Shown here one piece after another: positions 1 to 36,058 of a stretch of DNA of 64,000 nucleotides. Positions within the stretch are counted from its first letter, which is position 1. Each line of letters opens with the position of its first letter. Source of the DNA: Escherichia coli 042 (GTDB lineage Bacteria; Pseudomonadota; Gammaproteobacteria; Enterobacterales; Enterobacteriaceae); assembly GCF_000027125.1 (NCBI RefSeq), contig NC_017626.1. The stretch is one strand, 5' to 3'. The position numbers and the translations under genes are program-made. The notes beneath the pieces were generated by a model. It made no database searches, had not been told where the DNA came from, and saw nothing but the letters and a program-made list of their open reading frames with translations.

Positions 1-635
1 TTGCCGCTGAACAGATGTAGCATTCTTTCCAGGTCGACGAGTCGGTCAGTCTGTTGCCCGGTGATAAGATGAAACCCCCACCGGTCCCACCTCACTAGGT
101 TGTTGACGATAATTTTACTGCCAAATTTGCAGGGGCAATTGGTTTTGTAATTCCAGTTCAGTCCCCTGAAGACGTTGATCACCCCTCGCTCAAACACCTC
201 ATCCTTATTCTGGTGTAGTTGTTCAAATGTGCTCAGAATGTTCGCTTCACTGATTTCCGGAAAATTATCGTGCTCCAGTGACCGGTACCATGTATCACGG
301 GCCTGTGCATCCATTAAGGAAAGCATCCCTGAACGTTGCATCAGGTCACGCCAGATTTCGCGATCGAGATTGCGTGTGATGGCTTTCATTGCGGTTTCCG
401 GTTTCTCCATCAGCCAGCAGCCGCAGCGAAAATCCTGTTTCATGGCCCAGTCCGGGGCGGCTTTACCGCCAATACTTTCTGTCATTGCTGATATTTCAGC
501 CAGTTGCCGGATAAGTGTGTCGATTTGCAGCAGTGTACTCTTTCGTACAGCCAGAATGTGGCGGATACTGGTTGAGCAGATAACGTCCGTATGCCCGGTG
601 ACCACTTCCGGACGGGAGATTGTGATGTCTGACAT
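1..635 (-). CDS. Partial CDS (start codon at 633-635, 3' end runs off window start); DUF4942-like putative methyltransferase-like protein
   Basis: Manual reverse-complement translation from ATG at 633-635 gives MSDITISRPEVVTGHTDVICS... with no stop for >200 codons down to position 1; absent from ORF track because the stop lies outside the window. Family name from recalled gene order downstream of yeeW. Confidence 0.45.
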   Translation of the reverse strand, partial: MSDITISRPEVVTGHTDVICSTSIRHILAVRKSTLLQIDTLIRQLAEISAMTESIGGKAAPDWAMKQDFRCGCWLMEKPETAMKAITRNLDREIWRDLMQRSGMLSLMDAQARDTWYRSLEHDNFPEISEANILSTFEQLHQNKDEVFERGVINVFRGLNWNYKTNCPCKFGSKIIVNNLVRWDRWGFHLITGQQTDRLVDLERMLHLFSG

Positions 636-719
636 TATCGGTTTCCCTTTTGGTTTATAAACGAAAACGCCAGCCCTGTTCAGGCTGACGTCAGTGGAAT
701 GAAGTATGGTGAGTGATAT

Positions 720-1142
720 TTACCGGTTCTGGTGCAGAAGCTGCAGATGACGAAGAGTACGGACATCCTCCCGGGCCTGTTCGATACAGGGCAACAGTGC
801 TACCGAATCCGTTTTATCCTCATCGTTGTCAAAGATAATTCCCGATTCGCAGTCGATATTGTCCTGCAGCCACGCAATGAGGATATCCAGCGCTGTTTCA
901 GTGGTTAATGGCATCACGCTCTGTATCACTGTATTGTCTTCCGGCAACTGATGAGGGCTGGCAGAAGTCGCCGGTGTTTCGGTAGCGTCACGTTCATTCA
1001 CCACGCGGAGTGAATAACCGTTTTCAGCGACTTTGTTAATCAGTTCAGCGAGCTCAATACCATCGACGTCAACGACAATGCGCCCCATGTTCAGCGCCTG
1101 CGCATTAATGCTGTCGGCTTCCAGCGTCAGGGCCAGTTTCAT
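720..1142 (-). CDS. yeeW: YeeW-like protein, downstream partner of CbtA toxin
   Basis: 140 aa ORF; ATGA overlap with cbtA stop; position matches yeeU-yeeV-yeeW order of E. coli cryptic prophages. Confidence 0.55.
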   Translation of the reverse strand: MKLALTLEADSINAQALNMGRIVVDVDGIELAELINKVAENGYSLRVVNERDATETPATSASPHQLPEDNTVIQSVMPLTTETALDILIAWLQDNIDCESGIIFDNDEDKTDSVALLPCIEQAREDVRTLRHLQLLHQNR

Positions 1143-1516
1143 TGTTTCGCCCCCGGATGTTTACCCAGGGTAATGTTATTTACCGTTCTGTAGTTGTCGC
1201 GTGTCATCAGGCCGGTTGCCCGGCGTGCCCGGAGAATATCAATGCTGTTGATTAACTGCGACGGGGCTCCTGCGCTGAATCCCGGCTGGTCGGTACGTAC
1301 CAGCGCGTATTTTTCAACGAGAAAGTTCACCGCGTCACACAGTGAAATCCCTGCCTCAATATGCTGCTCAATCACACGTTCATCAGCGAACGGTGTGTCA
1401 TTCAGCGTGAGGCCATAGTGCTGGTCCAGCAGTCGGGTGAGCAGTGTCTGCCAGATGGTGATGGGAGACGGGCAGCCCGATGCCTCCCGTACGTGAGTGT
1501 CGGGTAATGTATTCAT
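1139..1516 (-). CDS. cbtA: CbtA/YeeV-family type IV toxin (cytoskeleton-binding toxin)
   Basis: From internal Met (MNTLPDTHV...); tail ...LLDQHYGLTLNDTPFADERVIEQHIEAGISLCDAVNFLVEKYALVRTDQPGF... matches recalled CbtA/YeeV. Confidence 0.85.
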   Translation of the reverse strand: MNTLPDTHVREASGCPSPITIWQTLLTRLLDQHYGLTLNDTPFADERVIEQHIEAGISLCDAVNFLVEKYALVRTDQPGFSAGAPSQLINSIDILRARRATGLMTRDNYRTVNNITLGKHPGAKQ

Positions 1517-1562
1517 CTTAAGTTCTCTGTAACAGGTGGTTATAAAGGGGAGATATCCGGTG

Positions 1563-1940
1563 TTATACGGTGGTTGCGGGCGCTGCCGGTGTCGGATAAA
1601 CAGCCAGATAAACGTAACCACAGGAGCCGAGGGTGTCGGCTTCGCAGGTCAGCCCTTTCGCATACAGTGTCACGGTATGCTGATGGCGGGGATTCAGTTC
1701 ACCACTGGTGAGCATGAGCTCCAGTTGTTTCATCAGCAGCGGAAAGGCCTGGTCCAGGTGGTATGCATCTGCATCGCTGAACCGGCCTCTGATACCGGCG
1801 CGGTCGGCAAGGTAATGCAACCGGTTACCCTTCTGCACCAGACGTGCCCCGAAACAGGGCGTCACGGTGCAGGGCAGTCCCCACCAGAGGCGGTCGTGAT
1901 TGTCGTCGGGAGGCGTTGTCCCGGGGAGTGTGTCTGACAC
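1563..1940 (-). CDS. cbeA: CbeA/YeeU-family antitoxin
   Basis: MSDTLPGTTPPDDNHDRLWWGLPCTVTPCFGARLVQKGNRLHYLADRAGIRG... matches recalled YeeU/CbeA; immediately upstream of toxin; start codon appears to be GTG. Confidence 0.85.
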   Translation of the reverse strand: MSDTLPGTTPPDDNHDRLWWGLPCTVTPCFGARLVQKGNRLHYLADRAGIRGRFSDADAYHLDQAFPLLMKQLELMLTSGELNPRHQHTVTLYAKGLTCEADTLGSCGYVYLAVYPTPAAPATTV

Positions 1941-2019
1941 GATAAAGTCCTCACAGAAAATCGGTTAAGAATGGTCCGGTAGTGGCGATAATTCTGCTCA
2001 TCAGAATTCCCTTCCAGAC

Positions 2020-2241
2020 TCAGTTCAGGGTGACGCTCATCAGCCGGACATACGGACCAAAACTGTCCTTACGGCGTTCTGCAAACACAGCCAGTACACC
2101 GGGAATATCCTGCACTTCACGGCCGGTATATGTATCCGTGCTACCGTGCCAGCGGTATTTACCGGTACAGAACGGAAAAAGACGGGATGCAGGATGCTGA
2201 CGGTGAATACGCATGGCTTCACCACGGGTGATGATTTTCAT
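2020..2241 (-). CDS. yeeT: YeeT-like DUF987 protein
   Basis: 73 aa, MKIITRGEAMRIHRQHPASRLFPFCTGKYRWHG... matches recalled YeeT. Confidence 0.75.
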   Translation of the reverse strand: MKIITRGEAMRIHRQHPASRLFPFCTGKYRWHGSTDTYTGREVQDIPGVLAVFAERRKDSFGPYVRLMSVTLN

Positions 2242-2327
2242 GAGAATAGTCCTCCTGAATGTGAAAGTAAGAAACAGCTGAGAAAGAGAAACTGAAGTGA
2301 TATGAAGGTGATTGTGACGGTGACGGG

Positions 2328-2804
2328 TTAAAGCAGACCGTGTTCCGCAAAGGAGAAAACCTGGCTGCCACCGACTATCAGATGGTCCGGTACCCGGATA
2401 TCAACCAGGGCCAGTGCCTGTACCAGACGCTCAGTGATAAGGCGGTCTGCCTTGCTGGGGGGGACTTCACCGGACGGGTGATTGTGCGCCAGCACCACGG
2501 CAGCGGCATTGTGGTACAGGGCGCGTTTAATCACTTCCCGGGGATGGACTTCCGTACGGTTGATGGTGCCGGTGAAGAGGGTTTCACCGGCAATCAGCTG
2601 ATTCTGGTTGTTCAGATACAGCACCCGGAACTCTTCACGCTCCAGTCCCGCCATGTTCAGAATCAGCCATTCCCGTGCCGCATGCGTGGAGGTGAAGGCC
2701 ACGCCGGGTTCATGAAGATGGCGGTCCAGGGTTTTCAGGGCCCGCTGAATGAGGCTGCGCTCGCCGGGTGTCATCTCTCCGGGCAGAAAGGAAAGTTGTT
2801 GCAT
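2328..2804 (-). CDS. yeeS: RadC-like JAB-domain protein (YeeS/YfjY family); alternative start at 2819
   Basis: HNHPSG motif (JAMM-like), LIVGG; conserved position between antirestriction gene and yeeT. Confidence 0.8.
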   Translation of the reverse strand: MQQLSFLPGEMTPGERSLIQRALKTLDRHLHEPGVAFTSTHAAREWLILNMAGLEREEFRVLYLNNQNQLIAGETLFTGTINRTEVHPREVIKRALYHNAAAVVLAHNHPSGEVPPSKADRLITERLVQALALVDIRVPDHLIVGGSQVFSFAEHGLL

Positions 2805-2819
2805 TGTGCTTCTCTCCAT

Positions 2820-3293
2820 TCAATCGATGATGCGCATAATGGCGCTGCATTCCGGATGCTGCAGGGCGTAATCCCGCAGCCGGTAATAATGGACCGTCAT
2901 GGCATAACACTCCGTACGACAGGCATGATGACTGTACGTCATCAGACAGGCGGCAATGCCGGCGGCTTCCGGGCTCATTTCAGCGCGGTTACCGTTCATG
3001 GCATTGAACAGTACCCAGTTTTCGCCATCATCGTCATCCGGTTCGGGTGCCATAAATGCCCCGCCGTTGTTCAGGGTGTACAGATTCCAGATACCACCGC
3101 AGTAGTTTTCGCAAAGACGGTCCATCCAGCCGAAGACACGGGGCTCCAGGGTCACCCACTGTGGAATGAGGCCAAAGTGCTGCGGCCAGAAACTGATACG
3201 TTGTTCATCAGGGACGAGGCTGGCAACCAGTTGTTGCAGGTCAGTCTCCGGTGCTGAGACCGAAGAGGTGGTGTTCTGAGACAATGTTTTCAT
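2820..3293 (-). CDS. Antirestriction protein (ArdB/KlcA family, YfjX-like)
   Basis: 157 aa acidic protein (PEPDDDDGENW), recalled similarity to YfjX/KlcA; stop abuts radC-like start. Confidence 0.7.
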   Translation of the reverse strand: MKTLSQNTTSSVSAPETDLQQLVASLVPDEQRISFWPQHFGLIPQWVTLEPRVFGWMDRLCENYCGGIWNLYTLNNGGAFMAPEPDDDDGENWVLFNAMNGNRAEMSPEAAGIAACLMTYSHHACRTECYAMTVHYYRLRDYALQHPECSAIMRIID

Positions 3294-3594
3294 ATGTGAA
3301 ATCCTTGTAGTGTGAATAAATGCGAGGAAGTAAAGGTCGGGTGGCTGATAACATCACGTTCATCACTGACCGTGAGACCCGGTAATATCAGGGATGAATG
3401 ATATTCGGCTGAAATTCCGGACAGCCGTACGCGTAACCGTTCCGGTCACAGACGGATGGCCTGATGCCATTGCCTGTACTCAGTCTGCACAGACTGATTT
3501 CTCCGGGACGGTAAAGCAGACGGGTATACCAGGCGCACAGGTCATCATCAGAAATGGAACGACATCCCGGCAGCGCCTTCAGGGACAGGCTGCA

Positions 3595-4413
3595 TCAGCG
3601 CAGGCTCTCCAGCAGCGTTTCCGCCATCACCCACAATGCGCGGTTGAGCTTAATATCGGTGTCGATGCTGTGAATGGCACGGGTGTGGATACGTTTTCCT
3701 CTGGCACTGCGACCGGAAATCCCGCCTTTCAGCATATTCTCCTGGATGGTCTGATAAGTACTCCACAGGTCCTTACCGTAATCCTCCCTGCGTCGCGGTG
3801 TCAGAATGTCAGCGGTGGTGACGGGCTGATGTTCGTCACCATAACGGTAAGTCAGTGCCGCCTGTGCCAGCGCCTGGCGTGCCGGTGGCGGCAGAATCAG
3901 CGACTGCATGGCATCACGCTTTTCCTCAATCCGGTCAAAAACCCCCACCACCTCGTAAGCCCCTTCAATGACTCTGTCCACCACATTTCCCCGGTGCGGA
4001 ACACGCACTTCCCCCAGAGACTGACCACAGACGCATCCGTTCTGGCAGACGAACCTGAAGTAACCCGGCAGCATCTGGTAGCTGGAGGTACCGTCATGAG
4101 AGTTGAGCAGAATAATTTCAGGGAAATGTTCTCCGTTTATCTCTCCGGCCCGCCGCAGACGCAGCATGTGTTTTGTGTATCCCCGGCGGCCCGGGTCGCG
4201 CACACGGGTCTGGCAGGCGAAGAATGGCTGAAAGCCTTCCCGCTGCAGGCTTTCCAGTACGGTGATGGTGGGGATGTACGTATAGTTCTGGCTTCGGGAC
4301 GTGTGTTTATCTTCCCCGAAAATCCCCGGCACATAGTGCATCAGTTCTTCGTGTGTCAGCGGACGGTCACGGCGTATCTGGTTCGCATAACCAAAACGAC
4401 TGGCTAGTCGCAT
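3595..4413 (-). CDS. DUF932-family protein (YfjQ/YafZ-like)
   Basis: 272 aa; recalled similarity to YfjQ-type proteins of CP4-57-like elements. Confidence 0.65.
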   Translation of the reverse strand: MRLASRFGYANQIRRDRPLTHEELMHYVPGIFGEDKHTSRSQNYTYIPTITVLESLQREGFQPFFACQTRVRDPGRRGYTKHMLRLRRAGEINGEHFPEIILLNSHDGTSSYQMLPGYFRFVCQNGCVCGQSLGEVRVPHRGNVVDRVIEGAYEVVGVFDRIEEKRDAMQSLILPPPARQALAQAALTYRYGDEHQPVTTADILTPRRREDYGKDLWSTYQTIQENMLKGGISGRSARGKRIHTRAIHSIDTDIKLNRALWVMAETLLESLR

Positions 4414-4512
4414 AATTTGCTCCTTATCGGTGGTTAAGATTTACTGGTGTAATAAATGAAAAAGCCACGTCTCCCGGAGAAGACGCGGCCTGATGGGTGA
4501 AATGAATGACGT

Positions 4513-4746
4513 TTATTGTCTGAGAAGACCGTCACTGGCGAGCCGCGTATTAAGCACCTTTCCGGCATCGGGTTCAGAATTCCGGCAGCGCCAGCGTCGC
4601 TGACCTTCCGCGTTGCGGATAACCCGACGGAAATGCATTCCCGGGTCATCCTGGATAAACACATTGCGGTAAGCTGTTATGACAGCAACCGCCTGCCCGT
4701 ATGAGAAAGATCCTTCAGCCAGGACATACTCTGTGTAACCCGGCAT
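4513..4746 (-). CDS. DUF905-family small protein (YkfF-like)
   Basis: 77 aa; ...[29 protein letters not shown]... resembles recalled YkfF motif HFRLVVRD...WRAWNFEPDAG. Confidence 0.55.
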
Positions 4747-4762
4747 ATCTGTTTTCTCCTGA

Positions 4763-4800
4763 TAAATAAAAAGCCTCTGCCACGCGTTGTGACAGAGGCT
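4763..4800 (-). terminator. Putative Rho-independent terminator after the secreted-protein gene
   Basis: Inverted repeat agcctctg...cagaggct (8 bp stem, ~13 nt loop) flanked on the plus strand by an A-run (U-run on minus-strand RNA), ~25 nt past the stop at 4825; coordinates approximate. Confidence 0.4.
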
Positions 4801-4824
4801 GAAGCATGAAACTGACTTCAGGGA

Positions 4825-5280
4825 TCAGTTAACGTTTTTTCCGGAAACGGTAATTAGCAGTGGATGGTAGTCCTGGGGATCGAAAACCGATAACGGCAGA
4901 CTGACACGATGGCCGTTACTTTCTTCAGTTGCTTTAATGATTTCGGTTGTGGCGACATTTTCCACGCACTCCGTTTCCAGAAATGCGTCTGTGGTTCGCG
5001 TGGCATTACTGTCACCAAAAGCTTCCGTTTCCATTTTTCTGGTCACCAGCGTCTGACCATATTTGTCTTTGAGTTGCAGAGTGATGGTGAGGGGGCCAAA
5101 CCCTTCATCGTTTCCGCCATTATCCAGCCGGAACTGGTAAGCACAAATATTTCCCGGGAGCCATATCGTATCTGTATTGCGTATACTGATGTAACGTTGA
5201 TCCTGTGCCCGGAGTGGGGCAGACCACGTTAACCCCAGAATGAAGGCGGTAATCATGCAGGTTTTGAACAGGTGAATCAT
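4825..5280 (-). CDS. Predicted secreted protein with N-terminal signal peptide (YkfB/IrmA-like family suspected)
   Basis: Hydrophobic N-terminus MITAFILGLTWSAPLRAQ then hydrophilic body; family assignment from memory only. Confidence 0.4.
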   Translation of the reverse strand: MIHLFKTCMITAFILGLTWSAPLRAQDQRYISIRNTDTIWLPGNICAYQFRLDNGGNDEGFGPLTITLQLKDKYGQTLVTRKMETEAFGDSNATRTTDAFLETECVENVATTEIIKATEESNGHRVSLPLSVFDPQDYHPLLITVSGKNVN

Positions 5281-5355
5281 GGTATTTACCTCTCTGAATC
5301 ATGACGATGACACTGACAAGTCAGGTGATAAAACGTAAAAGGTGCAGAATACTCG

Positions 5356-7878
5356 TTATGCCGGTAACTCCGGGGGTAATGCTTCTTCCAGCCGGTTAAC
5401 CATATTGCCGAGATGGGATGCATCATATTCCATGACGGGGCGTTGCCTGATGATACTGACCACCAGTGGTTTGATTAACATATTGGTCGCGGCCCGTTGT
5501 TGTATACCGGCGGCGAAAATGATCTCCAGAGCATTCTGATCGATAACACGGGCCAGATTCGCGTTCAGATTTTCTGTTTCATGTCCGGTCAGCAGGAAAC
5601 TGCCGGCAAGCCATGTCACCTGTTCCTGAATCATTGCCAGAATTTTGACGCGATCTTCTTCAACCAGCGCTCCGGCAATTTTTCCTGATACAGCGGAGGC
5701 AATCATTCCCCCCAGAACACCGCCAACCACACGCCCTGTCAGTGCACCAAATGGTCCCAGTGGACTGAACAGTATCCCGCCCGCCACTGACCCGACAGCT
5801 CCACCTGCCACACCGGAAGATGCCACGGCAAGATTCCTGATGAACTGCGTACCGGAGATCCGTCCCCGCAACATTTTGATCATGTCAGGGCCGGTTGTGA
5901 CAGCTACCAGTGCCAGAGATGTCACCAGCGTACCCTTCATCACTTTGTTCAGGGCACTGATATTTCCTGTACCGGTCCCCTTCTGAAGAGCCAGTCGGAC
6001 AGTCGGACTGGCCGTCGAAAAATCAATGTGCTTCAGCATACCCTGAACAACACTGAGCCGGTGAAGTTGCTGGGTTGTGACGTAGACAGCCAGTGTGCGG
6101 GTGAAGGTTTTTCCTGCCTGGACAGCAGCTGTCTGCAGGGCAGCATCGCGATCGCCGGTGCTGAGCCAGAAGACCGATGCCGTCAGGGCAAAACTGATCC
6201 CTCCGGCCGCCAGACTGACAACCGAACCCTCGGCAATATCATAAGTGACCGATTCGATGGTCCCGAACCGGGTGATATTACGGGCCTGGGTATAAGTCAG
6301 ATGTCCCCGACGAATCAGCCGGGACGCTTCTGCGGGATCGGTTACACCAGGTACTTTACCTTCGCGGATCTTATTCCTCATGGTTTCAACAGCGCCGGCA
6401 TACTGATCACGGGGGACTTCCAGTTGCATGGGGCCATGATTTCCCATGTAACGATACTGTCCGTTTTGTCCGTCGAATGCCGCACCGACGCTACGGGCTG
6501 CAGTTGAACAATATTTCGTCTGGATCTCTGTTCCGCTGACCAGTCTGTCTGCTCCATTTCTGGCATTATTATCACCGAGGATCCGTGCGTTTTTCAGACG
6601 GACTCTGTCGACAATATGGTTTCCCCGTTCAGCGGCAAACCCATGTCCCTGCCCTCCGGAAGCAAACATTTTCTCATTTGTACTCCAGGTTTCCGGCAGT
6701 TTCATGAGAATCAGACCATTCGCCGTTGCATCGGAAATAAAACTGTTGTAGGGGCGTTCATAAATTTCCTGACACAGTGTTTCTGTTTCGCGACAAAGAG
6801 AGGAGCAGTACCATTCCGGATCCGGCTTATGATTTTCCGGGGCATGATGTACTTCTGTCAGCCCGCAGGAGGCACAGATACGAAGCTCATCCACGTGATG
6901 GAATGATACAAAACGGCGACCTTCTGAAAAGGGATACCAGTCACCGCCGTCCAGGCAACGATCGAGAAAATCGTCATTCGCTTCCGGTGATAAATTCAGG
7001 CGGTTCCGGAAGAGGGTTTTCAGTTCATCAGGGGTAAATGACAGGCTCTCTCTCAGCTTTTCGTTGAAACCCGCCATGTTTCTTTCATACCAGGCATTGT
7101 CCAGTAGCCAGTTTCCGTCTGCCAGTTCAAATTCCCTCAGTTCTCCCCGGGAAATCCGTTGTGAAATGAGTGTCAGCCAGATGCGCTCCGTCAGCGTTTC
7201 AGGAAGGCTGTAATCGTTTTGCAAACTGCTCAGCCATGATTTACTGTTGAGCACCGGTTGTTCTTCCAGTGTCTGGCTGATGGCACTGGTCAGTCTTTTC
7301 AGCGCCTGGATCTGGCTGGCCGCCCATAGCAGCGTCACTAATGCAGCCAGCCAGTACAACAACCCGCCCCACCACATCAGTGAGGGTGAAATATCGAACT
7401 GCAATGCGATCAATGGTGCGTATGCAGAACACGCCATAAGGAAAAAGGCAGTATAAAAACAGCAGTAATACCCGTTAATTTCCTTGCTGATATCTTCAGG
7501 TGTGAGCCCGTTCTGCTGAATGGTTCTTATCTGCACGGGAAGAGCCAGCAGACCAGCGGCGAGAGCGGTGGTCAGAATAAATTTTACAGAGTCAAAAGTA
7601 TGAGCCTCCAGTGCGATATGTTTACCATCAAGTCCCCACATGAAGCTGATGATCATTCCGGCAATCGTCAGAAATACGCCTGCCAGCCAGCGAATATGGA
7701 ATAACCGGGTTATGCGTTCAGTGATATAGCCAGCCAGTAAAGCCGGACCGAACAGACACAGCAATATGAACCCTGCCAGCGCAGACGCTGTGCTGGTTAA
7801 TGCTCTGAACAAAAGGCGAAGAATGGCAAATCCTGCGATCAGCAGAATCAGCGCGCCGACTATCTGTAACATAGTCAC
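5356..7878 (-). CDS. Large inner-membrane protein, YeeR/YfjW-like
   Basis: 840 aa; multiple hydrophobic helices at N-terminus and Gly-rich hydrophobic C-terminal region; sits where yeeR lies relative to flu in CP4-44. Confidence 0.55.
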   Translation of the reverse strand: MTMLQIVGALILLIAGFAILRLLFRALTSTASALAGFILLCLFGPALLAGYITERITRLFHIRWLAGVFLTIAGMIISFMWGLDGKHIALEAHTFDSVKFILTTALAAGLLALPVQIRTIQQNGLTPEDISKEINGYYCCFYTAFFLMACSAYAPLIALQFDISPSLMWWGGLLYWLAALVTLLWAASQIQALKRLTSAISQTLEEQPVLNSKSWLSSLQNDYSLPETLTERIWLTLISQRISRGELREFELADGNWLLDNAWYERNMAGFNEKLRESLSFTPDELKTLFRNRLNLSPEANDDFLDRCLDGGDWYPFSEGRRFVSFHHVDELRICASCGLTEVHHAPENHKPDPEWYCSSLCRETETLCQEIYERPYNSFISDATANGLILMKLPETWSTNEKMFASGGQGHGFAAERGNHIVDRVRLKNARILGDNNARNGADRLVSGTEIQTKYCSTAARSVGAAFDGQNGQYRYMGNHGPMQLEVPRDQYAGAVETMRNKIREGKVPGVTDPAEASRLIRRGHLTYTQARNITRFGTIESVTYDIAEGSVVSLAAGGISFALTASVFWLSTGDRDAALQTAAVQAGKTFTRTLAVYVTTQQLHRLSVVQGMLKHIDFSTASPTVRLALQKGTGTGNISALNKVMKGTLVTSLALVAVTTGPDMIKMLRGRISGTQFIRNLAVASSGVAGGAVGSVAGGILFSPLGPFGALTGRVVGGVLGGMIASAVSGKIAGALVEEDRVKILAMIQEQVTWLAGSFLLTGHETENLNANLARVIDQNALEIIFAAGIQQRAATNMLIKPLVVSIIRQRPVMEYDASHLGNMVNRLEEALPPELPA

Positions 7879-7992
7879 TCCGTGATGAATATCATGTTAT
7901 TGTGAATGCCAGTGAATGTGGCACTGAAATGTTTTCCCCCGTCCGGGTCCCGGTCATGATGACCGGAACCACAGAGAGGCAATGCAGAATTA

Positions 7993-10900
7993 TCAGAAGG
8001 TCACATTCAGCGTGGCCTGACTGTTATAACCTTCAGCGCTGCTGCCGCTGACGCTGTGGGCATAACCGGCCTGAACGCCCAGGGTGATATTTTCCCGGAC
8101 ACGGGCTTCCAGTCCGGCCTGCAGATCCAGTGAAGTGCCATTCTGTGAGGGAGAGAACGTCATCCCGCTGCCTGCGGTGGAGGTCCCCACACGCATATCA
8201 CCCCGGGAGCTGAAGGTGCGGATAACGGAAGGCTGTACCCACCAGTTCACCGGCAGTTCACGCACACTGTGTTTTGCACTGTCACGCAGGGGGGCACGGG
8301 ATGAGGTGCCTTCACCAAAGGTCATATCGTTGTGGCTGCCCAGACGGAAACCGGCACGCACATGTTGTGCACTGCCATGCCCGAACTTCACATAACCGGC
8401 GTTGTCCTTACCGTCATCCAGCGAAAGCCCCTGCCAGGTGTACTGCAGCCGTGGCTCCAGCATCAGGTTGTCAGTAATACTGAAGGGCAGACCGGTTTCC
8501 AGTGAGCCCAGCCAGCCCCAGCCCCGTGCGCGGAAGTCGTTATTGCCCGATGACGCTTTCATACTGTGGCGGGTTCCCTGTGCCACAATGTCAGCCCACA
8601 GGCCGGAGGAGGTGTGTGTCAGGTTCATATATCCGCCCAGGCTGCCGGCATCATCCCGGACCGTGCCGGCGCGGGAGCCGTCATCATCCTTAACATCAAC
8701 GGAAGAATGGCCTGCAGCACCATACACTCCTGTCGTCAGTGACATACCGGCGACCTCTGTTCTGAGCAGGTCACCCTCCAGACGGACGAAGCCATAGCTG
8801 CCGCTGCTTTCCGGCGTGGCCCCACGGGCAATACCGCCGTTGTTATCGTGACCGAGATGGCCGCCCTGAATGCTGAGACGGACGCTGTTATTTTCACCGT
8901 TTACACCGGTCTGATGGCTGCGTGAGCCTGCCAGAATCCGGTCATAGTCCATTGCCTGTGTCAGCATGGAGGCGTACAGGGGGACTTCAGCACGATAACG
9001 TTCTTCACTGCGCAGATACCAGCTCTCATCACTGTCCCGGTTGAGGGTGTAGTTAAAGGCCCCGGCCTGCAGCATATTCCCCTGGACAAAAGCCCCTTCC
9101 TCCGTGGTGGCACCGTTAATGGCCTCAACCACCTGAATACCCTTACCGGTGGTCGCCAGCCCCGTACCACTGTTGCCGGCGTTCACCAGATTCAGGATGG
9201 TTTTTCCGGTTGCCCTGCCACCGTCAATGACCAGTCTGTCAGCATTGTTCTGCGCCATATCCGGGCGTACACGCAGGCTGATGGTGCCATTCTGCCCGTT
9301 CAGGTTTTTCACCTGCAGGGTTGCCGGTACGAACTTCCCTGTGCGGGTGGAGGTGAAATGAATCTGTCCGGCATGGCTGAGGTCATCCACCACCGACTGC
9401 ACCGTGGCGTTATCAGGGATATTCCAGGTGGCACCGGATGTCAGGGTGACATTCGTGGGGTCAATGGCACCGTTCAGCACTGTGCTGCCGGTCAGCTTCA
9501 GGGCCGTGCCGCGCTGAGCGATGACATCCGTGGTGACGGTACTGTCGTTCAGCGTCAGCGTGCCTTCATTCAGGTTGACGGTTTTCTGGGTGAGTGTGGT
9601 GTTGCTGACAGTGAGTGTGCCACTTCCTGATTTTTCCACCCTGCCGTTACCGGTAAGAGCGCCTCCCTGCAGGAGTGCATCACCTTCACGGATGGTCAGG
9701 GTATCGTTATTCACCGTTTTCCCGGAAAGGGTAAGCGTGGCACCGTTATTCAGCGTGGTGGTGCCCGCCAGCGAGCCCCCTCTGGCAGTGAACAGTCCGC
9801 CATTTACCGTGGTATCCGTGGCCGTATCACCGGCGTTCAGCGTGAATGAACTGCCTTTTTCCAGCATCAGGGCATCCGCCTGACCGCCCCCGATACGGAA
9901 TGCCGTTCCGTCGCTCCGGGTACCACTGACAGCGGCCCCGGAATCGGCCAGCAGTACACCGCCATTCCCCATGGATACGGTGGTGGCGGCACCACCGTTG
10001 CGGACATCCAGCGTTCCGCCATCATCCACACGGGTATTAGTGGCTGTGTGTCCGCTCAGCACATCCAGACGTCCGCCATTTTCCAGTACGACATTATCAG
10101 CCTTACCCGCCAGAACGGAGAATGCTCCCAGGCGGTTTGTGCCGGTGACGGTTGCAGCTGTGCTGGTAACCAGTGCACCTCCCGTGTTCTGGGTGACATC
10201 AGACGCTTTACCGCCGGCATTCACCTGCAGCTTTCCTTTCTGGTTGATGGTGGTATGCGCGGTAGTTCCTCCTTCCTTAATCACCTGCCAGCCCCCCTCG
10301 TTAATTACCGTGTTCAGCGCAAGTCCGTATTTGTGCACATACTGGTTTCCTCCCTCCAGCCGGGTGTTATGTGCCTCGCCGTGTACCGTCTGGTCACCGC
10401 CGGCGTAAATGAGGGTGTCCCGTGCCATCCCCGAAGACCAGATAACCTGCCGGCCATTTTTGTTGATGGTGGTGGATTCAGCCGTCCCTCCGACCATCTG
10501 ACCGCTGGACACATTTTCAGACTCCGGACCACCTTCTGCACCGGTGTTGACGATGGTTCCGGTTGCCTGCCCGCCATGTTTAATGGTCTGGTAGCCAGAC
10601 TGGTTAATCACCGTTCCGGATGCACTGCCGCCTGCATGTATCCATTGTTCACCACCGTTAAGGACAGTACCGTAAGCCTGCCCGCGCAGATTCTGTCCTC
10701 CACCGGCACTGATAACCGTATCCGTGGCACTGCCACCTGCCATGACATCCTGCAGACCGTTTGCGGTGACCGTGGTGTTTCTGGCAGTGCCACCCCGGGC
10801 TATCTGCTGACCGCCGGTGTTGTCATCAGAGTCCGGCCCCAGCTCAAGCCCGGTACTGACAGTCACGCCATCAGCTGTTCCGGATACAAACTGGTTGTCA

Positions 10901-11112
10901 TGGTTTACCAGTGTTCCGCCATTCACTGTTTCACCCGGGTGCACAACGATGTCAGCAGCCAGCACCGGGAGTGACGTGACTGCGGCAAGAGACAGTGCAA
11001 CCGCCACACCGCCACGTTTACCCCGTGCGCGGGCCAGTTCGGAGGCAACCACGAAAGCGCCCGTAATGTGATTCCATACCAGCCTGTAGCAGGTATTCAG
11101 ATGTCGTTTCAT
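7993..11112 (-). CDS. flu: Antigen 43 self-associating autotransporter adhesin
   Basis: N-terminus MKRHLNTCYRLVWNHITGAFVVASELARARGKRGG (extended signal peptide), repetitive beta-helix passenger, C-terminal beta-barrel ending ...TLNVTF; start taken at second Met (1039 aa). Confidence 0.9.
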   Translation of the reverse strand: MKRHLNTCYRLVWNHITGAFVVASELARARGKRGGVAVALSLAAVTSLPVLAADIVVHPGETVNGGTLVNHDNQFVSGTADGVTVSTGLELGPDSDDNTGGQQIARGGTARNTTVTANGLQDVMAGGSATDTVISAGGGQNLRGQAYGTVLNGGEQWIHAGGSASGTVINQSGYQTIKHGGQATGTIVNTGAEGGPESENVSSGQMVGGTAESTTINKNGRQVIWSSGMARDTLIYAGGDQTVHGEAHNTRLEGGNQYVHKYGLALNTVINEGGWQVIKEGGTTAHTTINQKGKLQVNAGGKASDVTQNTGGALVTSTAATVTGTNRLGAFSVLAGKADNVVLENGGRLDVLSGHTATNTRVDDGGTLDVRNGGAATTVSMGNGGVLLADSGAAVSGTRSDGTAFRIGGGQADALMLEKGSSFTLNAGDTATDTTVNGGLFTARGGSLAGTTTLNNGATLTLSGKTVNNDTLTIREGDALLQGGALTGNGRVEKSGSGTLTVSNTTLTQKTVNLNEGTLTLNDSTVTTDVIAQRGTALKLTGSTVLNGAIDPTNVTLTSGATWNIPDNATVQSVVDDLSHAGQIHFTSTRTGKFVPATLQVKNLNGQNGTISLRVRPDMAQNNADRLVIDGGRATGKTILNLVNAGNSGTGLATTGKGIQVVEAINGATTEEGAFVQGNMLQAGAFNYTLNRDSDESWYLRSEERYRAEVPLYASMLTQAMDYDRILAGSRSHQTGVNGENNSVRLSIQGGHLGHDNNGGIARGATPESSGSYGFVRLEGDLLRTEVAGMSLTTGVYGAAGHSSVDVKDDDGSRAGTVRDDAGSLGGYMNLTHTSSGLWADIVAQGTRHSMKASSGNNDFRARGWGWLGSLETGLPFSITDNLMLEPRLQYTWQGLSLDDGKDNAGYVKFGHGSAQHVRAGFRLGSHNDMTFGEGTSSRAPLRDSAKHSVRELPVNWWVQPSVIRTFSSRGDMRVGTSTAGSGMTFSPSQNGTSLDLQAGLEARVRENITLGVQAGYAHSVSGSSAEGYNSQATLNVTF

Positions 11113-11294
11113 CAGCATTTCCTTAATCAGAGTGAGGGTGAATAAAAAAGCCGGTATCCACAGATGTGGATACCGGCAGGTAAAGGGTTACAGTGCCGGA
11201 GGTCCGGCTGACGGAAGTTTCTGACGTGTGGCTCTGTTGTTCCCTGAATCTCATGTCTGTGTGTATCTGCGCACGTTGCTAACAGGAGTTATTA

Positions 11295-11345
11295 TTAGCA
11301 TGACGATCGATATAAACGATCGATAAAATAGGTATCGATCGTTTT
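11295..11345 (-). promoter_or_regulatory. agn43 phase-variation switch: three closely spaced GATC sites (Dam/OxyR region)
   Basis: Sequence acGATCgatataaacGATCgataaaataggtatcGATCg ~190-230 bp upstream of the flu start codon; protein binding not testable from sequence. Confidence 0.65.
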
Positions 11346-11445
11346 ATTCTATTATCAGGCTATTGCACGGACAAGAGAGACAGTAACGAAAACAGCGCTT
11401 TTGTGAGCAGACTCAGAGGCAGGGAGGACATCATCCACAACAGGT

Positions 11446-12318
11446 TCAGAAGAAGATCCAGTTCCATACCGCGCGGGCAACAGAGACCACGGTGTCACGA
11501 ACAGCGCGCAGGGCCGTACGGACAACAGAGGCAACACAGACGCTCTCCGCTGTGTCAAATATCCGGTCCACCGCACCGGTAAACTGTTCACGGGCCTGAG
11601 AGCGGACAGACTCCGTGCGCAGCTCGTCCTGCAGTCGGGTCATCAGGGGGCTGGCGGCATGGTCGGGAAGCGCTGTCATGAGCGCACTGACCAGCGTATC
11701 CAGTTCCCAGCCGGTGCGGGCCGATACGGCAACAACCGGATGTACGGGCCGGAACAGACGGAATACCGCCTCCGTTTTCTCACGAATGTTCTGTTCCTGT
11801 GCGGGAGAAGGCTGAATACCTGCCATATCCCATTCATGGCAGGGTTCCGTTTTGTCAGCCTGCGTCACCACAAACAGCACCTGCTGATGTCCGCACTGCA
11901 GGATGTGTCGCCAGAAATACTCATCCACAGACAGGGCCCGGTCATCGGCTTTAATCAGCCACAGCACCAGGTCCAGTTCAGGCAGAATGTCACGGTACAG
12001 GGCTTCATACTCTGCATCCCTGTCCCGGCTCTCGCCCACCCCGGGCAGGTCAGTGATAACCATGCTGTGACCGTGACCACTCAGACGGAAGCGCTGCACT
12101 TCCCGGGTGCCGGCGTGAACATCACTGACCGGTGTGACCTCCCCCTGAAACAGTGCATTACAGAGTGAAGATTTACCGGCCCCGCTTTTACCCATAATGC
12201 CAATCACGGGTTCGTGACTGGTGAGTTTGCGCAGATGTTCCAGGATGTGACGGGAAAGTGAGTAAGGCAGGGAGGAGAGCGGTTTTTCAATTGCCTCAAT
12301 GGCATCAGACGGATTCAT
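11446..12318 (-). CDS. yeeP: YeeP/YkfA-family GTPase (50S ribosome-binding GTPase domain)
   Basis: P-loop GIMGKSGAGKSSL, DLPG switch; adjacent to flu as in CP4-44; start taken at internal Met MNPSDAIE. Confidence 0.8.
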   Translation of the reverse strand: MNPSDAIEAIEKPLSSLPYSLSRHILEHLRKLTSHEPVIGIMGKSGAGKSSLCNALFQGEVTPVSDVHAGTREVQRFRLSGHGHSMVITDLPGVGESRDRDAEYEALYRDILPELDLVLWLIKADDRALSVDEYFWRHILQCGHQQVLFVVTQADKTEPCHEWDMAGIQPSPAQEQNIREKTEAVFRLFRPVHPVVAVSARTGWELDTLVSALMTALPDHAASPLMTRLQDELRTESVRSQAREQFTGAVDRIFDTAESVCVASVVRTALRAVRDTVVSVARAVWNWIFF

Positions 12319-12427
12319 ACATGTATTCCCGGTGAAAAAAGACAAAACCCCGCGCACCGGAAAGGTGGCGGGGGATTCACGGAGATAATATCTGTCTGAG
12401 ATTATTTAGAATGTAACAGGTAATGAA

Positions 12428-13447
12428 TTACTTCCTTCGCTTGTGTTCAAGATATTTCTCTGTAATCAGCATTTCAAAAAACTCTCCTGTTCTCAGACCG
12501 TAAACAGTTCTGAGCTCATCAAGCATTTCTTTCACATTGCTTCTTATATGTATATTAATGGCCTTTTTACCATCACTCCGATATTTGTCCTTTTGTTTTT
12601 TCTGATGCCAGGCATGATTTATTCGTGTTCTGAACAGTTCAATGGTATCAGGCGCTTCTTTCCATAAAGCAAAGGCGACAAGAGAGGCAAGATAATATTC
12701 TTTCGTTGAAGATGGTATGAACCACCGGGTCACTGGGTTATGTACTGGATGTTTTTCATCCTGTTTTTGTTTCAGTCTTGTCCAGAACCACTGACACATT
12801 TCATCATCGTCAGGAAGGAACCACTTAAACTTTTGACAAGCGCTTTTCTTTTTAAGCCACGCCTGCCTGAGTTCCTCGAGGTATATGCTTTTTGCATTTT
12901 TATTAATTAAAGAATGGCAGGAGTCAAAATATGAAATGATTACTTTTATTCGTTCGTTATGGGATGATGGATTATCCGGAAGGTTACTTTTTTTGTAAGT
13001 ATTTAACGTTTCATCGGTAACTGTTCGTATTTTCCTGACTTCAATTCCGTTTTTTATTCCTGATGAATTATGGTTTATTTTCGGGAATTTTGTATGGTCT
13101 TCCTTCGACAGATAAATAGTAGTCCAGGTAAAGAAAGTCGCAAGTTCGTCAGTTTTCAACCAGAGAAAACTCTCTTCAGGCAGTATTGCCTGCCCTGCAA
13201 TAATTTCAAGTTCATTAATTTCTTTGCTGAGAGCTTCTTCTGCAGTCGAACCAAAAACACCAAAAGAATTGTTTGAAGCTTTATAATACTTTTCTTTTAA
13301 AAACGAATTAACATTTCTGATACAGTTTTGTGGGTTGTCAGGCGCAAACTGAGGGAATTCATTGGGGTATTTGTGATTCAGATATTCGGCATAAAACCGA
13401 CATTTACGGGGATCTTTGCATTTGATAAGCATCTGTTCGTTATTCAT
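12428..13447 (-). CDS. Hypothetical lysine-rich protein, low GC, no recognisable domain
   Basis: 339 aa uninterrupted ORF in AT-rich DNA; followed upstream by ~1.4 kb ORF-poor AT-rich sequence. Confidence 0.45.
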   Translation of the reverse strand: MNNEQMLIKCKDPRKCRFYAEYLNHKYPNEFPQFAPDNPQNCIRNVNSFLKEKYYKASNNSFGVFGSTAEEALSKEINELEIIAGQAILPEESFLWLKTDELATFFTWTTIYLSKEDHTKFPKINHNSSGIKNGIEVRKIRTVTDETLNTYKKSNLPDNPSSHNERIKVIISYFDSCHSLINKNAKSIYLEELRQAWLKKKSACQKFKWFLPDDDEMCQWFWTRLKQKQDEKHPVHNPVTRWFIPSSTKEYYLASLVAFALWKEAPDTIELFRTRINHAWHQKKQKDKYRSDGKKAINIHIRSNVKEMLDELRTVYGLRTGEFFEMLITEKYLEHKRRK

Positions 13448-14941
13448 TATCTCACTCCATGTCGCCTCTCTTATAACAAAATCGTCTCAATTTTATTTTG
13501 TCACTAAGTGATTATCAAATGTTTTTGTTGTGATTTGTTTATGTTTTTAAATGTCTATGTCATGTTATCAGTGTTTTTATATAAAGATACATTGATGTTT
13601 TTATGATGGTGAAAAATCATATTTTCTTTTATATTCATTTGGTTATGATTGTTTGTTCTGCATTTGGGGGATGACAGAAAAGAATGGGCTGTGTTGATCA
13701 CATGCGCCGTATGCGCTGTCCAGGTTACAGCGCACCTCAATATTCAGTGTTTTCCTGTTGACTGGCATTGTTAATCTTATGTTTTTGGTTTTGTTTTATT
13801 GTGTGGTTGTGAATGTTGTGTTTGGTTTGATGGTTGAGAAAGAAAAAAGAAGACTATGATGCACTAATCAGGAAATATTTTCGACGCCGGTTGAGTTAAA
13901 AGAACAGATAGAGTGGACAGGTGTTGTGTTAATAGTTTACGGCTGACAGCATTCTTATTTTAATAACAGGTGTTATTATTTATGGATTTATACAGACGAT
14001 ACTCCCGCTAAATAGTCAGGTGATGATGGTCGTTGAGTGGTTTTATAAGCTACGTATAGCTCTGTAAGACTTATTAATTCAACGATGACTACCGTTTATT
14101 GATATACATGTATTCGGGAAATGTCATAAAAAATGTCACGTTGTTTGCAGAATCTTTTGTTTTTTAGTTTTTGATACGCAATGACTAAGCAGGAGGACTC
14201 ACTTTGTTTGTATGCTGACCGTGATCGTCAGTGGAGATGAACAATTGACTCTTACACTGAAAAATATACTCTCTTGTTTTTTATCGTTTATCTGCATGAA
14301 ATAAATAATCTTCAGCATTTTTCATGTGAATTTCATCATCTTACCCTGAATGTTCATTTTATCAGTATGATATTCCTTTGTTTACTGATAAAATTAACCG
14401 ATAAATGTTCTTGTTAAGATTGCCAGAATGACAGTTTTTGCTGATTCCGTGCAATGGAAGAGATATTATATCATCTATTTAAGCAATAAGTTTAATACAA
14501 ATTTCAGAAGATGTGTTGGTGAGTTGATGACTAATTTTCAGAGGGGGATGGAAAAGTGTATGGAATCCCACAAAGAAAAAATCGTTATTGTTCAGTTGAC
14601 GTTTATTTCTGGGTGATGACTCCAGTCAGCAGAATATGTTTTTTTCGATGAATGACCCAATAACTTTTTCGTGAATTTCCACGGAGCATGAAAAGCAAAT
14701 CGTTTTCCGGTCCAGCCGTTTGATGTGGGAACGGGGGCAGATGGTGGTGCTCAATGCGCCGGGTAAATATCAATACGATTTGAGGAACCATTTGCTGGTT
14801 AATCTCTTTCCGATAGCATTGGATGCAGCAATCACTACATCCAACGTGAATAACCATGAATTGCACAGAAACAATATACCTGCGACCCTCTCCGGAAATT
14901 CCGGTATCACTGACTACGTACCGCCCGGGAGTGATTATGAA

Positions 14942-15514
14942 TCAACAGGCGTATAACAGGTACTCGTCAATCATCAGTTCAAGCTCGCGCTTTTCCCGTT
15001 TGCGCGCCACAGCCCAGCTTTCAAGTTCTGCGTGTGATTTATGCTTTAACTCTTCAGTCCAGGGCTGCATGGAGTGGGCGCACATCAGATCATACCAGCA
15101 CAGCCATATCAGGGTGTGGTAGAGATCGCGATCGTCAAAACGCCGGAGCAGACTGTTCAGCCTGTTTGCCAGTCGGCTTTCTCCCAGACGATGTAGTTCA
15201 CTGAGTAAAACACCACCCAGGTTAAAATGTGTAAGTAACATGATTTCATGAGTCTGAATGCTGGTCATTAACCCTTCCTGAATGGCAGGAATGAACGGTG
15301 GCGTTGCCGGGTTGACTACCTGATAGAGTCCCTGTGGTGCCACCGAGATGATGGTGCCTTTTTCCGGCAGAAAAAAGTGGGCCAGGGTCAGGCGATGATA
15401 ACCATGAAGATGCGGAGAGCCCATTCCGTGAGCGACAATAAACCGGGTTACACTTGCCATCCATTTCTGATGCTGGGTGAGCAGCAGATCACACCGGTTT
15501 TCAAGTTTTTGCAT
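14942..15514 (-). CDS. Hypothetical protein downstream of alpA
   Basis: ORF 14942..15541, start chosen at MQKLENR; same strand and 58 bp downstream of alpA. Confidence 0.4.
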   Translation of the reverse strand: MQKLENRCDLLLTQHQKWMASVTRFIVAHGMGSPHLHGYHRLTLAHFFLPEKGTIISVAPQGLYQVVNPATPPFIPAIQEGLMTSIQTHEIMLLTHFNLGGVLLSELHRLGESRLANRLNSLLRRFDDRDLYHTLIWLCWYDLMCAHSMQPWTEELKHKSHAELESWAVARKREKRELELMIDEYLLYAC

Positions 15515-15599
15515 AATATTCTCTCCTTTAGCACGCAGCAAAATGCCTCCGGAGGCCGGATAGTGTATTCGCTGCGGTTGAACGGGTAATGGTCAGGAA

Positions 15600-15806
15600 T
15601 TACGGACGGGATTGTGCAATACGCGCCTGCAACCAGGCTTCCACTTCACTTTTCAGCCATCGGGAGCTGCGGCCGAGTTTGATGGGGGCCGGAAAGGCAC
15701 CATCCTTGATGAGCTTGTAAAACCACTTATCGGTTAAGCCGGTCAGTTGAGTGATAAACGCCATGTCGACCATCTGGTCATCCATCAGCGAAACTGGGGT
15801 ATTCAT
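15600..15806 (-). CDS. alpA: AlpA-family phage transcriptional regulator (HTH)
   Basis: 68 aa from internal Met; ...ITQLTGLTDKWFYKLIKDGAFPAPIKLGRSSRWLKSEVEAWL... matches AlpA/prophage CP4-57 regulator fold. Confidence 0.8.
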   Translation of the reverse strand: MNTPVSLMDDQMVDMAFITQLTGLTDKWFYKLIKDGAFPAPIKLGRSSRWLKSEVEAWLQARIAQSRP

Positions 15807-16504
15807 GAAAATGTTCCTCCGGATGTTGTTAATCTCAACCGGCGTTGGTGATGAAAAACGCACCACCTTCACTGGCATAACAACCGGGGAGAAACGTAAA
15901 AAATGAGCAGGGGAATATTCCTGTCGGGAGATAAACAGGGAGCATGATGCTGGGATACCCGGTGGCTACCGCGAAACGATGTTTCTCGCGCGTACGCACG
16001 ACAGAGAAGGGATGATTTTCGGGAGGATGAGGGGAAGAACCGTCGTTCTTATAATTGCAGAGTTATTTACGGGGCGGTTACGGTGGGGCAGCTCGTGCCT
16101 TGTGGGCAGGGACAGGTATCACCGATGGGATAAGACTGTCTGATTGGTATTATAAATATATAAGAGAGATCAAACACATGAGTTCATATCTGTGAAATAA
16201 ACACTGTGAGTGTGATCAGTGGGTATGAGAACGCAGTAGCAACAGATTACGTTGTACTCACAGGGCTATCCCTGATAGCTGGCGTATAACCTGCGTATAT
16301 AAAACGTACCTGCAACACACGTGAACAGAGTGCATTAAGCATCCGTCTGAGCGGTAAACGTATCCGACCTGGTGAGTGACAGTCTGAGAGACCGGTTAAG
16401 TGGTGGTGCGGGAGTAATGAGTTTGGGGTGGGTACCAGAATGCCAGTCAGGTGCGGTATGCTGGCAGTATCACGTTAATTGCAGCATAAAGTGATGAGAG
16501 GCTA

Positions 16505-16717
16505 ATGGAAGTTAAAACCAAAGAAGACTGGCTGTATCAGTTCCGTCGTTGTTCATCCCGGGAGACGCTGGAAAAAGTGATTTCCCACACACGTTATAAA
16601 CTTACCCTTGCGGAGCTGGAAGCCTTCAACTCTGCGGTTGATCACCGACTGGCAGAACTAACCATGAACAAACTTTACGATCGCGTTCCGGCTTCTGTCT
16701 GGAAATATGTTACCTGA
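16505..16717 (+). CDS. Hha/YmoA-family nucleoid-associated regulator paralog (H-NS co-modulator)
   Basis: 70 aa; ...[27 protein letters not shown] closely matches recalled Hha C-terminus [27 protein letters not shown]. Confidence 0.85.
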   Translation: [70 protein letters not shown]

Positions 16718-35906: not shown

Positions 35907-35984
35907 AGTGATTTCTCATATGGATATGATGAAGATATTAAGGAGTTTATCAGAGATAAAACTTATCCTTACGGTAACTGGTGA
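35307..35984 (+). CDS. tli1: Tli1-like lipoprotein immunity protein, copy a
   Basis: Lipobox LLTGC; immediately downstream of tle1; 225 aa. Confidence 0.7.
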   Translation: MTRDKIIFIAPLLALLTGCNSVSSRYADLDKTEWGYKKLPYDEWKFLFIYPKALPALATQALMVDGEGYKTTYQYLDNTEPSQVSVGRWNDHLGATESYYNKGKALPLMLRFCWDSIIDKKSYETLIFFKKGTWEQMVTPYADNRWNETYYRSTMIIGLAPEGKVRVWLGDRGNPVVPQLDAKITTVSGDKMKMCKGVTKSDFSYGYDEDIKEFIRDKTYPYGNW

Positions 35985-36058
35985 CTCAAACCAGAATAAT
36001 GATGAGCATATAAAAAGAAAATCTAATTTTCATCTGGCGTAAAAAAACGGGCAATAGC

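Follow-up and report, generated by a model that had tools for sequence, protein, structure and literature searches.

A CP4-44-like cassette in Escherichia coli 042 is the distal arm of a pheV island and carries the full-length form of yeeR

The closest described relatives of the gene block analysed here, positions 1-12318 of a 64,000-nucleotide stretch of Escherichia coli 042 (contig NC_017626.1; this whole stretch is hereafter the window), are two elements of E. coli K-12, CP4-44 and CP4-57, together with a gene cluster of pathogenic E. coli, flu-yeeR-irmA(aec69)-aec70-aec71. CP4-44 is located between cobU and yeeA, and CP4-57, inserted at ssrA, carries rnlAB and abpAB as cargo. The cluster of the pathogens has been reported from enteroaggregative E. 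coli (EAEC) 042, as 'region 2' with hha2, from the CFT073 islands PAI-pheV and PAI-serX, and from EC958. The window holds this same cluster, intact and with no substantive difference, and is thus a further copy of what has been published. The irmA_4509 allele of 042 was found in published work to be close to the alleles of 55989 and O104:H4, and bases 1-16000 of the window match HH35 and PO06021 with 100% identity and O104:H4 outbreak genomes with 99.9%. The earlier note on this DNA, made from the sequence alone, had described the block as a CP4-44/CP4-57-like cryptic prophage with an extended YeeR-like gene. We conclude with high confidence that it forms the distal arm of a pheV island of about 118 kb in an EAEC/O104:H4-like E. 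coli, and that the same cassette is found, damaged, in K-12 as CP4-44. Both the cassette and the truncation of yeeR in K-12 are already known, and ordinary.

Gene assignments were taken from Pfam, Rfam and the annotation that RefSeq gives for a 100%-identical genome, and the three sources agreed. All genes of the block are on the minus strand, and its content, by position in the window, is as follows (aa, amino acids).

1-635, minus strand: DUF4942 gene (Pfam PF13708, E 7.7e-42); the full gene, of 280 aa, is at 11793-12635 of flanking record L001
720-917, minus strand: small DUF957 gene, 65 aa (RefSeq and the open reading frame list; 80% identity to K-12 sequence downstream of yeeW)
945-1142, minus strand: N-terminal fragment of a YeeW-like DUF5983 gene, a pseudogene in the annotation (Pfam PF25638, E 6.8e-28; 76% identity to K-12 YeeW)
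1139-1516, minus strand: cbtA-family toxin gene of a type IV toxin-antitoxin pair (Pfam PF06755, E 1.2e-61; 85% identity to K-12 CbtA, 66% to YpjF)
1563-1940, minus strand: cbeA-family antitoxin gene (Pfam PF06154, E 7.5e-55; 93% identity to K-12 CbeA, 68% to YfjZ)
2020-2241, minus strand: YeeT-like DUF987 gene (Pfam PF06174, E 2.7e-39; 93% identity to YeeT)
2328-2804, minus strand: RadC-like JAB-domain gene, 158 aa, the intact form of K-12 yeeS (Pfam PF04002, E 3.5e-44)
2820-3293, minus strand: antirestriction protein gene, ArdB/KlcA type (Pfam PF03230, E 7.8e-37; 74% identity to CP4-57 LfgA/YfjX)
3595-4413, minus strand: DUF932 gene, YfjQ/YafZ family (Pfam PF06067, E 1.4e-51; 74% identity to YfjQ)
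4513-4746, minus strand: DUF905 gene, aec70 type (Pfam PF06006, E 9.5e-18)
4825-5280, minus strand: irmA (aec69), secreted interleukin-receptor-mimic protein (Pfam PF18673, E 9.8e-38; PMC4807369, PMC9431211)
5356-7872, minus strand: yeeR, full-length, 838 aa (identity to K-12 YeeR, RefSeq annotation)
7993-11112, minus strand: flu/agn43, self-associating autotransporter adhesin antigen 43 (Ag43), 1039 aa (Pfam ESPR, seven AIDA repeats, AC_1 and Autotransporter; 88% identity to K-12 Flu)
11137-11342, minus strand: IsrC small RNA, the agn43 leader (Rfam RF00124, 255.5 bits)
11305, 11318 and 11337 (span 11305-11340): three GATC (Dam) sites, by sequence match
11446-12318, minus strand: yeeP GTPase gene, intact, 290 aa (Pfam MMR_HSR1, E 2.7e-15)

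The gene order and coordinates given in the earlier note were confirmed by these assignments; its list had missed the DUF957 gene (720-917). It had also rightly attributed the absence of the DUF4942 gene from the open reading frame list to the window edge: RefSeq and Pfam place the gene across base 1, with the first 211 of its 280 codons inside the window and the last 69 before it. Its comparison with CP4-44 and CP4-57 holds as well, neither synteny nor identity being poor.

CP4-44 aligns collinearly by blastn with window 11998-6352 at 91.1% and 2780-888 at 86.1% DNA identity, with a third, short match at 801-634, and its gene order yeeP-isrC-flu-yeeR-radC/yeeS-yeeT-cbeA-cbtA-yeeW is reproduced on one strand in the window, with the same orientation. 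Protein identity ranges from 76% for YeeW through 85% for CbtA, 88% for Ag43, 93% for CbeA and YeeT and 95-96% for YeeR to 97% for the RadC-like protein (with YeeS, across residues 9-158) and 98% for YeeP (over residues 108-290). The two loci nevertheless differ in several respects. CP4-44 is without window positions ~2781-6351, and thereby without the C-terminal 330 aa of YeeR, irmA, the genes for DUF905, DUF932 and the antirestriction protein, and the beginning of radC; the K-12 yeeP is a 5'-truncated pseudogene of which only the 3' part is kept, whereas that of the window is intact; and the DUF4942 gene is missing from CP4-44. Their sites also differ, the window cassette being located where the pheV island ends distally, beside yghD. 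The two are paralogous copies and not orthologous loci, and the median number of places with the cassette in an E. coli genome is three.

CP4-57 shares with the window homologues of YeeP and of the DUF932, antirestriction, RadC, DUF987, CbeA-family and CbtA-family proteins, in the same relative order, and carries this module at the end of the element opposite its integrase, but it is without flu, yeeR and irmA. The seven homologues (YfjP, YfjQ, LfgA/YfjX, LfgB/YfjY, YpjJ, YfjZ and YpjF) are 50-77% identical at the protein level, YfjP and YeeP standing at 50%, and judging by sequence the relation to the window block is at the family level only.

The position of the block in the chromosome was read from its flanks, which were taken from the 100%-identical HH35 record. 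Before base 1 are found, in turn, the end of the DUF4942 gene, a spacer of about 110 bp, a degenerate repeat of the pheV 3' end, yghD, gspL and the glc genes. The repeat, TGGTGCC-GGACTCGGAATCGAA, is the 3' end of tRNA-Phe minus one base (window -338 to -317; L001 11662-11683), and was recognised in the sequence by eye and confirmed by blastn-short; exact and three-mismatch searches for the pheV 3' end near yghD gave no match because of this one-base deletion. An intact tRNA-Phe gene (pheV, by yqgA and speC) with a tyrosine integrase is located 117.9 kb off in the other direction (record positions 4589378-4590913), and between it and the cassette are hha2, two type VI secretion system (T6SS) clusters, pic, many insertion sequence elements and several defence genes. 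The borders of the island are thus a tRNA-Phe gene with an integrase on one side and, on the opposite side, a directly repeated tRNA 3' end, as is characteristic of tRNA-linked islands, and the presence of two T6SS clusters and pic identifies it as an EAEC-type pheV/pheU pathogenicity island.

Within 1-12318 itself, Pfam and PHROG searches detected no phage structural, lysis or replication genes, and no integrase or att pair bounding the 12-kb block was found, the only integrase being the one about 118 kb away. Given the pheV repeat at its outer end and an integrase 117.9 kb distant, the block is the conserved distal arm of a pheV genomic (pathogenicity) island of about 118 kb and not a separate prophage, so that the stand-alone cryptic prophage implied by the earlier note is not sustained. 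Extension upstream, by which that note had expected to find the rest of the DUF4942 gene and perhaps an integrase or a tRNA gene, did recover the former, but no integrase or tRNA gene lies nearby, only the degenerate pheV repeat and then yghD. The chromosomal flank is itself damaged: in the region of the type II secretion system and sslE (L001 8454-9799, before the window) a fragment resembling AcfD/SslE is fused to a gspK fragment, which indicates a deletion beside the distal junction of the island.

The length of YeeR, which had appeared extended, is explained by the K-12 reference. The mechanical open reading frame does have 840 aa, as the earlier note had it, counted from a GTG codon; from the ATG two codons downstream, which is the start used in K-12 and by the Prokaryotic Genome Annotation Pipeline (PGAP), the protein has 838. 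The 510-aa K-12 YeeR matches residues 3-509 of the 840-aa frame at 96% identity and then ends, the first 507 residues of the 838-aa protein corresponding to K-12 YeeR. The blastn alignment of CP4-44 with the window has a single internal gap, at 2781-6351, and in a three-way DNA alignment K-12 follows the window yeeR up to '...GGTAAAGTA' and then continues with the radC sequence 'GGAGAGATGAC...', joining yeeR codon ~509 to radC codon ~9. Since the K-12 alignment switches in this way from yeeR to radC, K-12 carries a deletion of ~3.57 kb (window ~2781-6351, from the blastn breakpoints and the junction alignment), which took ~330 codons from the end of yeeR and ~10 from the start of radC, together with irmA and the genes for DUF905, DUF932 and the antirestriction protein.

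The distribution of the family points the same way. The cluster of the 838-aa YeeR comprises 15,556 member sequences, and 820-850 aa is the usual length in gamma- and beta-proteobacteria, with homologues of this size in Serratia, Pseudomonas, Shewanella, Methylomonas, Herbaspirillum, Cupriavidus, Dyella and other genera and with invariant residues that reach the C-terminus (N797, P802 and R811, for example). Of the 5426 complete E. coli genomes surveyed, 2582 carry yeeR in some form, and in 1800 no less than 80% of the full gene is present. K-12 derivatives have a 60% form, and the full-length gene is thus commoner than the shortened one. The truncation of yeeR in MG1655 is already in print (PMC4807369, PMC6480617). 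The 838-aa YeeR is the intact, ancestral form, of the standard length for its family, and the 510-aa YeeR of K-12 is a deletion product. The family, PF27347 (YeeR_C), is a precomputed assignment on homologues, in which the window protein was placed through its 96% identity to K-12 YeeR.

YeeR itself is described as uncharacterised (PMC4807369), and we analysed its layout from an AlphaFold model (50 homologues, pLDDT 77.5), hydropathy and conservation. An N-terminal helical region extends to about residue 204, with predicted transmembrane helices within residues 1-160, and is followed at ~205-330 by two winged-helix-like units, proposed on local Foldseek matches only, by an invariant four-cysteine zinc ribbon (C333, C336, C356 and C360), by a highly conserved alpha/beta core at ~405-500, and by a helical C-terminal third, poorly modelled, with a glycine-zipper segment at 670-736. 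The K-12 truncation would, according to the model, keep the core and lose the C-terminal membrane region. The core is found in about 1000 clusters at 50% identity and in several architectures, among them related short forms of ~450-700 aa that consist of the core and the C-terminal half; the fusion partners of long-form homologues are only Sel1 and TPR repeats, which give no enzymatic clue.

This core models as a restriction-endonuclease-like (PD-(D/E)xK) fold. The order of its elements in the model agrees with alpha-beta-beta-beta-alpha-beta: E415 lies in the helix, D442 precedes strand 2 and Q451-x-K453 belongs to strand 3. As its invariant motif the core has (A/P)D442...Q451-x-K453 with E415 and E485, and in 239 diverse core proteins E415, D442, R443, Q451, K453, E485 and P487 are each kept in 238 or 239, residue 441 being a proline, and the motif a literal 'PD', in 36. 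A glutamine takes the place of the middle acidic residue of (D/E)xK, so that the catalytic competence of the modelled core is uncertain. No match of YeeR to any nuclease family was obtained in Pfam, NCBIfam or the PDB sequences, no family of any kind was found in Pfam, NCBIfam, PHROGs or PDB, and the full-length model gave nothing below E 0.08 with Foldseek against the PDB, local matches being to winged-helix domains only. Matches to phage tape-measure proteins (phrog_167, E 0.0017; 9ki1_g, E 1.9e-4) and, below threshold, to C19orf12 were rejected as glycine-zipper, compositional or motif-level resemblance.

We tentatively consider that YeeR could be a membrane-anchored, nuclease-like defence or exclusion protein, directed against incoming phage or plasmid DNA or else killing the infected cell through its C-terminal glycine-zipper membrane region; in E. 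coli its expression would depend on the phase-variable agn43 promoter. The order of strands and helices in the predicted core, the placement of E415, D442 and Q451-x-K453 and the near-invariance of these residues speak for it, the missing acidic residue against it. In a hand-picked sample of neighbourhoods, moreover, YeeR homologues mostly stand alone as single genes, placed in variable regions beside addiction or defence genes. The neighbours include RES-Xre, HicAB with a TIR protein, AbiGi with DUF4062, a WYL regulator on a Lactococcus plasmid, HepT/MNT, an integrase island with DUF6361 and PLD genes, a complete cyclic oligonucleotide-based antiphage signalling system (CBASS) and, in Enterobacteriaceae, WYL, PDC-M09A and PDC-M09B beside dndBCDE. 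The sampling by hand limits what these neighbourhoods can say, however, and the Dyella homologue has no defence genes in its context. In the 847-aa beta-proteobacterial YeeR lineage of Cupriavidus and Alcaligenes, yeeR is in every case preceded, at a distance of 24 bp, by a gene of ~370-410 aa (8739-9977 in neighbourhood records L011 and L012, 6792-7976 in L024); this gene has no Pfam match and may be a conserved partner.

The enterobacterial neighbourhood offers the most specific comparison. There, a YeeR homologue with 67% identity lies 37 bp downstream of the WYL-PDC-M09A-PDC-M09B genes, and the PADLOC models of PDC-M09B match the YeeR core weakly (E 1.6e-5, with 2e-7 to 9e-4 for four other core proteins). 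PDC-M09B and YeeR have the motifs HG..AE, AD....G...Q.K[YF] and (V/I)P(K/R)D in common, and both are rich in glycine in their C-terminal half; they differ in that YeeR has an additional N-terminal region of ~385 aa with the membrane helices, winged-helix units and zinc ribbon. Pairwise BLASTP between YeeR and PDC-M09B was not significant, however, and a narrow hidden Markov model (HMM) of the YeeR family scored PDC-M09B no better than shuffled controls; a broader YeeR HMM ranked the real PDC-M09B sequence first of 2001, at a marginal 9.8 bits. These sequence comparisons lend weak support to homology between YeeR and PDC-M09B, and we do not claim that YeeR belongs to PDC-M09. That system is itself an unvalidated candidate for a defence system, and no PDC-M09A or PDC-M09B gene neighbours the window yeeR, the neighbours of which are flu and irmA. 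A literature search yielded nothing that ties YeeR to a nuclease or to defence, and no mention of PDC-M09. Taken together, the proposal that YeeR is a nuclease-like defence or exclusion protein is a hypothesis, and a doubtful one. Its fullest version, on which we would put slightly less weight still, is a membrane-anchored sensor-effector with a PD-(D/E)xK-like core and a glycine-zipper membrane domain, acting against phage or other incoming DNA and, in E. coli, switched ON and OFF together with Ag43 through OxyR and Dam.

Another possible explanation concerns the origin of the block: the 12 kb could be a small mobile element in its own right, a satellite or prophage remnant, that entered the end of the pheV island by a separate insertion. 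GC content falls sharply at the inner edge, from 51-59% inside the block to 39-45% at 12-16 kb, an insertion sequence fragment (IS1) is found at 14626-14770, several tRNA-linked islands in one genome have the cassette (PMC4807369), and EAEC 042 has it as a duplicated unit of ~17 kb (PMC6480617). The island is clearly a mosaic, and the cassette may move as a unit. We nevertheless consider separate insertion unlikely, as there is no integrase, excisionase or att repeat on the inner side of the block and its outer end is the pheV repeat of the island itself. CP4-57 and a Serratia island, in which irmA adjoins yeeR and flu is missing, both hold the module opposite an AlpA-type gene (where the CP4-57 integrase is also located), and this common end position suggests that the cassette is part of the backbone of this class of element. 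That the block is a CP4-44/CP4-57-like cryptic prophage in which YeeR was lengthened to 840 aa by fusion or read-through, an impression that arises when it is set beside the 510-aa K-12 reference, can be dismissed given the clean yeeR-radC deletion junction in K-12, the length and C-terminal invariance conserved in two proteobacterial classes, and the commoner full-length form with its published truncation.

As the distal arm of the pheV island, the cassette would combine three parts. The first is the agn43-yeeR-irmA unit. The Ag43 protein has the ESPR signal, AIDA repeats, autochaperone and beta-barrel of its autotransporter type, and the three GATC sites are in the leader of its gene. The yeeP-flu intergenic region, with isrC and these sites at the same relative positions, is 93% identical to that of K-12, where they form an OxyR/Dam epigenetic switch that renders Ag43 phase-variable (PMC4807369). 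By analogy, the adhesin may be phase-variable here too, with the IsrC leader RNA ahead of it; this RNA ends in a hairpin and T-run, resembling a terminator, just before the flu ribosome-binding site. In EC958 and CFT073 agn43-yeeR-irmA is one OxyR-repressed transcript (PMC4807369), and the irmA product, a putative secreted cytokine-receptor mimic, would be the third member of the unit. A requirement of YeeR or Ag43 for the secretion of IrmA has been ruled out by published evidence (PMC4807369).

The second part would be a set for the establishment of mobile elements, made up of the YeeP GTPase, DUF905, DUF932, the ArdB/KlcA-type antirestriction protein, the RadC-like JAB protein and DUF987. 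Antirestriction activity may be expected of the ArdB/KlcA-type protein from its family, and LfgB, the CP4-57 paralogue of the RadC-like protein, has been reported as a protease. The third part would be the type IV toxin-antitoxin pair CbtA/CbeA, after which come DUF5983, DUF957 and DUF4942. In K-12, CbtA is toxic to the cytoskeleton (FtsZ/MreB), and CbeA would rescue the cell; the window genes are neighbours with 47 bp between them, and by analogy the pair probably stabilises the island. The YeeW-like DUF5983 fragment is flagged by PGAP as 'missing C-terminus', K-12 yeeW being truncated likewise, and shares its frame with the DUF957 gene downstream with no stop between, forming one frame of 140 codons (720-1142). 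This looks like an old in-frame deletion, which must be older than the split of the cassette copies since K-12 shows the same arrangement.

Direct observation covers identity and synteny, the borders of the island, the junction of the deletion and the conservation of the switch sites, and no evidence contradicts the identification of the cassette. Some points do weigh against the functional and historical parts of this interpretation. Phase variation, co-transcription, stabilisation by toxin-antitoxin addiction and antirestriction activity are all carried over from published work on homologues. Co-transcription of irmA with agn43-yeeR, moreover, depends on the strain, for in EAEC 042 irmA is driven by its own promoter, downstream of yeeR, unlike in EC958 and CFT073. 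A phage, a P4-like satellite and an integrative element, finally, are all candidate ancestors of the cassette, and the data single out none of them.

The remainder of the window shows the further content of the island. Directly inside the cassette, in a stretch of 39% GC, is an open reading frame of 339 aa (12428-13447) that has no match in Pfam, NCBIfam, PHROG or PADLOC. Between 14626 and 17903 are found the IS1 transposase fragment (14626-14770), a hypothetical gene of 190 aa, a small helix-turn-helix regulator (15600-15806), hha2, the second copy of hha (16505-16717), whose linkage to yeeR-irmA has been reported for EAEC 042, and a gene of the inovirus Gp2 family (17334-17903). Of the two T6SS clusters, the first (20875-47706) is complete and includes tle1 with two copies of the immunity gene tli1 (33605-36805), and the second (61076-64000) is the start of one of the aai type, with aaiC at 63043-63549, and runs off the window end. 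Defence genes are located between the two, at 48420-51645 and 53652-55045: a GIY-YIG protein with a match to PD-Lambda-1 (E 5e-88), a NERD and UvrD helicase (PADLOC C3a187, E 5e-137) and a Kiwa-like KwaA/KwaB pair (E 3e-10 and 2e-12), annotated in RefSeq as hypothetical proteins only. At 55086-57295, a gene similar to 3'-phosphoadenosine 5'-phosphosulfate reductases and an IbrB-like (ParB-type) gene form a pair of the IbrA/IbrB type, followed by a PerC-family regulator; the reductase-like gene also gives a weak BrxP/DndC-like match in PADLOC (E 2.4e-7).

The 'CP4-44-like prophage' blocks of pathogenic E. coli are, on this evidence, distal arms of large tRNA-linked islands, and the case of yeeR illustrates how a damaged reference misleads, the deletion in K-12 making a normal gene seem 'extended'. 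The only forward-looking point of the locus is YeeR, a common protein whose gene, in some strains, shares a transcript with that of a major adhesin and which has so far been without a known function. About one complete E. coli genome in three has an intact yeeR, and if YeeR were indeed a sensor-effector, the short forms of ~450-700 aa would join it in the same, hitherto unrecognised, defence family.

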